Below, one piece after another: positions 37,561-37,588 of a DNA stretch of 64,000 bases. The stretch lies in assembly GCF_003790525.1 (NCBI RefSeq), contig NZ_CP033635.1; one strand, written 5' to 3'. The notes beneath the pieces are model-generated. The model was not told the DNA's origin. It did no database searches and saw only the letters and a program-made list of their open reading frames with translations. Position 1 is the stretch's first letter. Each line of letters begins with the position of its first letter. The position numbers and the translations under genes were made by a program. The DNA comes from Escherichia coli (GTDB lineage: Bacteria; Pseudomonadota; Gammaproteobacteria; Enterobacterales; Enterobacteriaceae).

Positions 37561-37588
37561 TTTGTACACCGTCCGGCACTCAATCGCC

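Follow-up and report, generated by a model that had tools for sequence, protein, structure and literature searches.

A setA-less sgrR-sgrS-leuD locus in Escherichia coli, very probably a common and old allele with diverged flanks

The window analyzed here is a stretch of 64,000 nucleotides of Escherichia coli DNA that is the reverse complement of positions 59042-123041 of the SMS-3-5 chromosome, with 3 mismatches over 64,000 bases. These sole differences from the RefSeq chromosome lie at window positions 27099, 44858, and 49169, and SMS-3-5 is presumably a member of phylogroup F. Within the window, the leu operon ends with leuD on the plus strand and is followed by the small RNA gene sgrS on the minus strand and then by sgrR, the divergently transcribed activator of sgrS (Table 1). 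RefSeq annotation of SMS-3-5 gives the same order (leuD, sgrT, and sgrR), with setA absent. The leuD stop and the 3' end of SgrS are 33 nt apart (37561-37593); an earlier note on this DNA had given a gap of about 28 nt (37561-37588), which is the same interval taken to the start of the A-run. That note had also placed setA of K-12 between sgrS and leuD and had reported the gene missing here, and both statements hold. The MG1655 order is sgrR, sgrS, setA (1179 nt), and leuD, alignment of the sgrS-setA-leuD region has setA present in K-12 and absent from the window, and a tblastn search of the 64-kb window with K-12 SetA as query returned no SetA-like coding sequence (best E = 0.2).

Table 1. 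Features of the sgrR-sgrS-leuD region in window coordinates.
Feature	Position	Strand	Remarks
leuL leader	32686-32835		Rfam Leu_leader; followed by leuA, leuB, leuC, and leuD on the plus strand
leuD	36955..37560	+	Intact, 201 aa, TAG stop at 37558-37560; last gene of leuLABCD; RefSeq annotation of SMS-3-5
Haplotype-specific block, left edge (last 80 nt of leuD)	37481..37560	+	81.2% identity to K-12
Spacer, 33 nt	37561..37593		Junction at the presumed former site of setA; common to all setA-less Escherichia examined
sgrS, full-length SgrS small RNA	37594..37820	-	Rfam RF00534, 225.4 bits, model 1-232
SgrS intrinsic terminator (predicted)	37601..37623	-	8-bp stem, 7-nt loop, U6-C-U5; faces leuD instead of setA
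Haplotype-specific block, right edge (sgrS 3' part)	37594..37700	-	SgrT C-terminus, seed, and terminator; 73.8% identity to K-12
sgrT ORF within SgrS	37668..37799	-	43 aa, ATG intact; annotated as sgrT in SMS-3-5
sgrR, activator of sgrS, divergently transcribed	37888..39546	+	552 aa, intact; 95.6% nt and 97.8% aa identity to K-12

The genes on both sides of the junction are intact. LeuD is 99% identical to its K-12 counterpart over 201 aa, and the earlier note's statement that SgrS, SgrT, and SgrR are intact is borne out by the full-model Rfam match, by an SgrT of 43 aa with its ATG, and by an SgrR of 552 aa at 97.8% identity. Two further candidate features of the junction were rejected. A simple scan of the plus strand 3' of leuD gave no canonical terminator in the window and none in K-12 either, and with no difference between the two, the idea that a leu-operon terminator was lost along with setA was discarded. 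A promoter-like match at 37584-37613 is no more than chance would give (1 found versus 0.6 expected).

The SgrS RNA itself appears in full. Its minus-strand match (37820..37594) scores far above the gathering score of 37 for the Rfam model, its fold reaches -81.3 kcal/mol (z = -3.4), and its 25-nt seed, CATCATGTGTGACTGAGTATTGGTG, is the same in K-12 and in all aligned Escherichia, Citrobacter, and Salmonella loci. The stem-loop at 37623..37601 is followed by UUUUUUCUUUUU, and the RNA carries a Rho-independent terminator with a U-tail, the predicted Hfq-binding module. With sgrR adjoining in divergent orientation and the sgrT ORF inside (37799..37668), the locus has the makeup of a dual-function RNA; it lacks that of a K-12-type operon, as the SgrS terminator has no setA downstream of it and the leuD stop follows 33 nt past the SgrS 3' end.

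The SgrT peptide ends differently in the two strains, with …EELMQWEGSHSDY in the window versus …EGLMQWDDRNSES in K-12. Over the corresponding stretch (37668-37703), the window has ...MLEELMQWEGSHSDY and K-12 has ...MLEGLMQWDDRNSES, so that 8 of the final 13 residues are different. A single SgrT accession, WP_001248768.1, is annotated in SMS-3-5, UTI89, and O157:H7 PA20 alike, despite the ATT start in O157. At position 37634, the window lineage has a private G where all other aligned Escherichia sequences have A, giving GGUGC instead of GGUGU in the RNA directly 3' of the conserved seed. Just upstream of the sgrT start (37803-37810), the window reads GGAGGTGCCCC and K-12 reads GGGGGTGCCCC. The K-12 stem-loop that hides the sgrT ribosome-binding site is described in PMC2760817 as confined to 3 of 15 E. 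coli strains; the window has the common version of this upstream sequence, which resembles a better Shine-Dalgarno sequence.

Other Rfam matches to small RNAs occur elsewhere in the window. PssrA (102 bits; 11095-11185, minus strand) lies antisense at the ftsA/ftsZ junction, STnc40 (5379-5448, minus strand) lies between secA and mutT, and three naRNA4 matches (4899-4975, 51219-51284, and 58231-58310) look like REP-type elements.

Sun and Vanderpool reportedly described an sgrS-setA operon in K-12 in 2011. Two later sources that cite this work likewise treat sgrS-setA of K-12 as an operon, with setA expressed from the SgrR-dependent promoter by read-through of the SgrS terminator (PMC4509938, PMC9765468). 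The contribution of SetA in K-12 is described as modest and condition-dependent, and its substrate during stress is unsettled (PMC4021124). In pathogenomics papers, the name "setA" mostly denotes the ShET1 toxin gene. Compared with the K-12 sgrR-sgrS-setA locus, the window has the same divergent sgrR/sgrS arrangement, an sgrS promoter and 5' half at 97.3% identity, the same 25-nt seed, an sgrT ORF, and a Rho-independent terminator, and it is likewise bounded by leuD. It differs in lacking the setA cistron that K-12 has 27 nt after the terminator, in the 3' part of sgrS (73.8%), in the SgrT C-terminus and the last LeuD residues, and in an insertion of about 1 kb, containing espY2, on the far side of sgrR.

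This espY2 insertion (39547-40585) separates the sgrR stop from the thiB TPP riboswitch and contains an ORF of 189 aa (39776-40345, minus strand) that RefSeq labels as the T3SS effector EspY2 in SMS-3-5 and 042; an NCBIfam search of the ORF gave no match. K-12 lacks it and has sroA and the riboswitch directly after sgrR. Matches to the insertion at 80-100% identity occur in 1043 of 5426 E. coli genomes, so that only about half of the setA-less genomes would have it. A second insertion, of about 1.5 kb (44956-46500), lies between yabI and araC and is missing from both K-12 and 042. It carries two hypothetical ORFs on the minus strand, of 282 aa (45385-46233) and 140 aa (44956-45378), for which neither NCBIfam nor PADLOC returned a match, and an IS630 transposase fragment (46361-46500).

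The window allele of SgrS is not new. Horler and Vanderpool (2009, PMC2760817) gave K-12 SgrS as 88% identical to the SgrS of CFT073 and of O157:H7 Sakai, and these strains fall in the allele class of the window, whose SgrS is 88.2% identical to that of K-12 and nearly identical to those of UTI89, O157, and 042. The same source reported a mutated sgrT start codon in O157:H7, in agreement with the ATG to ATT change found here at the window-equivalent position 37797, where the window keeps its ATG; the paper also has a synteny drawing of K-12, CFT073, and O157:H7 that includes setA. The setA-less gene order is thus already known, in that the SgrS allele difference has been published and the order is annotated in RefSeq for thousands of genomes.

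The allele is widespread in E. coli. When a 140-nt junction probe (37511-37650) was searched by megablast in 5426 complete E. coli genomes, the junction was contiguous in 2143 of them (39.5%), at 95.7-100% identity. These carriers include UTI89, O25b:H4-ST131, ST648, IAI39, CE10, SMS-3-5, and many O157:H7 strains, and strain 042 has the same annotated gene order as the window. The setA-less strains named here are taken to belong to phylogroups B2, D, E, and F, and K-12 to phylogroup A. An assembly artefact was considered and is ruled out by the near-perfect match to SMS-3-5 together with the contiguous junction in 2143 independent complete genomes. K-12 setA, for its part, is present in 3239 of the 5426 genomes, nearly always at an identity of at least 99%, and this setA-bearing share of about 60% of E. 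coli presumably corresponds to phylogroups A, B1, and C. A chimeric probe joining setA to the junction matched 5398 genomes, which is the sum of 2157 and 3241, so that zero genomes have both, within a megablast sensitivity that a setA copy below about 85% nucleotide identity would escape. At that sensitivity, setA has not been relocated within the setA-less strains, which answers the earlier note's suggestion to look for the gene elsewhere.

Among other species, 80 loci were retrieved with SgrR as query, a set that did not include E. fergusonii, E. marmotae, E. ruysiae, or clade I. In all 76 loci from non-Escherichia Enterobacteriaceae, a minus-strand setA orthologue follows directly downstream of sgrS; its product shares 75-89% aa identity with K-12 SetA, and its start lies 173-669 nt upstream of the sgrR start in every case. 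The genera concerned include Citrobacter, Salmonella, Enterobacter, Leclercia, Lelliottia, Klebsiella, Raoultella, Kluyvera, Atlantibacter, and Buttiauxella, among others. Like the window, genera such as Salmonella, Citrobacter, Enterobacter, and Klebsiella have sgrR-sgrS synteny with leuD as the boundary; unlike the window, they keep setA, and in many of the outgroup genera setA and leuD are separated by REP-like elements or additional genes. Because setA is kept at the same site in 76 of 76 non-Escherichia loci, its absence is a derived loss, and setA downstream of sgrS is, judged from gene order, the ancestral state in Enterobacteriaceae. Of the Escherichia loci retrieved, those of E. albertii, E. 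whittamii, and Escherichia sp. E1V33 are without setA, whereas that of Escherichia sp. MOD1-EC7003 has it, and the loci sampled do not fix the placement of the loss within the genus.

The junction is shared in its details. In a base-by-base alignment, the 33-nt spacer of the window is identical in UTI89, has 1-2 differences in O157 and 042, and in E1V33, E. whittamii, and E. albertii departs by a 2-nt indel and 1-3 further differences, and the junction boundaries match across all of these and the window. Such matching boundaries and spacer across strains and species point to one old event rather than to repeated deletions. Local alignment against more than 80 loci gave only chance-level scores for the spacer beyond setA-less Escherichia; since it has no significant match in setA-bearing loci, neither the ancestral breakpoints nor any microhomology at them can be reconstructed.

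The difference between the window and K-12 extends beyond the missing gene. Identity to K-12 is 96.8% over 4.1 kb of leu genes, falls to 81.2% in the last 80 nt of leuD, is 73.8% beyond the indel in the 3' 107 nt of sgrS (from the SgrT C-terminus to the terminator, with the 25-nt seed unchanged), and returns to 97.3% in the sgrS promoter and 5' part and 95.6% in sgrR, so that the drop is confined to the surroundings of the indel. The 3' part of sgrS in the window is 95-96% identical to those of E. albertii, E. whittamii, and E1V33, and its terminator and seed part is 87-89% identical to Citrobacter, compared with 73.8% to K-12, which makes the window closer here to another genus than to K-12. 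At polarizable fixed differences in this part, with 17 Citrobacter and Salmonella loci as outgroups, the outgroups side with the setA-less type 7 times and with K-12 once. LeuD ends in ...FMR in the window, Citrobacter, and Salmonella, versus ...FMN in K-12 (YEAKQPAFMN). The K-12 type is thus the more derived allele at polarizable sites, and a limited literature search found no publication on K-12 as the more derived haplotype, a status that may be unpublished.

The identity of K-12 setA to setA of Citrobacter and Salmonella is 75-77.5%, compared with 80.5-83% between those two genera, while the corresponding identities for sgrR are about equal. Three-point arithmetic on protein matrices makes the branch to K-12 SetA longer than those to Citrobacter and Salmonella by a factor of about 2.7, versus factors of 1.0-1.4 for SgrR, LeuC, and LeuD. 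Between K-12 and MOD1-EC7003, identity reaches 98.6% across setA and 100% in the 3' part of sgrS, at positions 4444-5933 of the MOD1-EC7003 locus (L004), whereas the neighboring leu genes and sgrR are at 92-95%; a near-identical block within such flanks means that the setA-bearing block has moved between Escherichia lineages. The window and K-12 alleles are two old haplotypes whose difference exceeds the missing setA, and the K-12 type, with limits that lie about 80 nt inside leuD and in mid-sgrS, is a second, deeply diverged haplotype, found in about 60% of E. coli and nearly identical in Escherichia sp. MOD1-EC7003.

With high confidence, then, the window carries a common setA-less allele that goes back to an old, single loss of the ancestral setA and that is now normal in phylogroups B2, D, E, and F. 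The earlier note implied another picture, in which a K-12-like ancestor lost setA through a clean deletion that was recent and specific to this strain. The short gap and the intact neighbors on both sides would fit such an event, and the part of that claim concerning LeuD and SgrS stands, but the junction is the standard one in 39.5% of complete E. coli genomes, spans several phylogroups, and recurs in three other Escherichia species. Nor is the window simply K-12 minus setA, given junction flanks only 74-81% identical to K-12 against 96-97% around them, and the notion of a noteworthy deletion relative to K-12 is not supported; a recent deletion is extremely improbable. Little more can be said for a relocation of setA elsewhere in the source genome, since no genome with the setA-less junction matches K-12 setA by megablast and nothing SetA-like lies within the 64-kb window, and this too is an extremely improbable account. 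Had setA been primitively absent from the whole family and gained by K-12 through insertion, the more derived flanks of the K-12-type block would be understandable, but its presence in the same position and orientation in every one of the 76 non-Escherichia loci makes this very unlikely.

The origin of the K-12 haplotype is a different matter, and two histories deserve serious consideration. One, which falls just short of an even chance, is that the Escherichia ancestor was without setA and that phylogroups A, B1, and C, together with MOD1-EC7003, regained it through homologous replacement, in a tract that also took in about 80 nt of leuD and the 3' half of sgrS and that came from a deeply branching relative outside the sample. 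The setA-less state of E. albertii, E. whittamii, E1V33, and E. coli strains of B2, D, E, and F argues for it, as do the siding of the outgroups with the setA-less type, the long K-12 SetA branch, and the close match of K-12 and MOD1-EC7003 over the block. The K-12 block is also roughly equidistant from its relatives, sharing 74-81% identity with the setA-less type and 71-83% with Citrobacter and Salmonella. Against it, no donor appears among the 76 sampled species, the best SetA identity being 89% aa, and a homologous-protein search for a donor of the block gave only near-identical E. coli SetA among the top 120 matches. Relaxed constraint could equally have lengthened the SetA branch, and the diverged flank segments are short (80 and 107 nt), with E. 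fergusonii and other Escherichia outside the sample. The other history, a plausible one though it too stays below an even chance, is a long-lived ancestral polymorphism, in which both haplotypes descended vertically from the Escherichia ancestor and the indel suppressed nearby recombination, so that the flanks kept diverging. The outgroup ranking of K-12 SetA follows the species tree (Citrobacter and Salmonella, then Enterobacter, Klebsiella, Kluyvera, and Buttiauxella), and divergence is limited to about 200 nt adjoining the indel, both of which speak for this history. However, the flank divergence of 19-26% far exceeds the 5-11% that separates E. coli from E. albertii in neighboring genes, so that the polymorphism must predate the crown of the genus and outlast several speciations, and the near-identity of the K-12 and MOD1-EC7003 blocks needs transfer between lineages anyway. 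Re-acquisition is slightly favored over a retained polymorphism. It is accordingly a tentative thought that K-12 is the exception, the setA-less allele being native and the sgrS-setA block having been imported by homologous replacement and later exchanged between A/B1/C and another Escherichia species.

The setA-less allele would have arisen through one deletion, old enough for several Escherichia species to share it, that took setA together with its two short spacers and left the 33-nt junction, and the resulting allele is now the normal one in phylogroups B2, D, E, and F, SMS-3-5 among them. The SgrR-SgrS/SgrT module for glucose-phosphate stress is complete in the window, with its function taken from work on K-12. 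As read from the sequence, sgrS would be monocistronic here, its transcript ending at the SgrS terminator, with the leuD stop 33 nt beyond. Unlike in K-12, no efflux-pump cistron would be fed by read-through of that terminator, and the efflux arm would be missing from the SgrR-dependent response.

None of this changes the known mechanism, and the variation is of the ordinary pangenome kind, the locus between sgrR and leuD being a compact case of an old two-haplotype indel with strongly diverged flanks. The wide spread of the setA-less allele suggests that setA is dispensable. In the same allele, the leu operon and sgrS run toward each other across only 33 nt and a single hairpin, and a predicted consequence of this arrangement is that leu read-through transcripts would run antisense to SgrS, and SgrS transcripts passing their terminator would do the same to leuD. 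Finally, the K-12 picture of glucose-phosphate stress, in which SgrR activates SgrS/SgrT together with the SetA pump, fails for about 40% of sequenced E. coli, including the extraintestinal pathogens UTI89 and ST131 as well as O157:H7, and in these strains the 3' half of SgrS and the C-terminus of SgrT differ as well.
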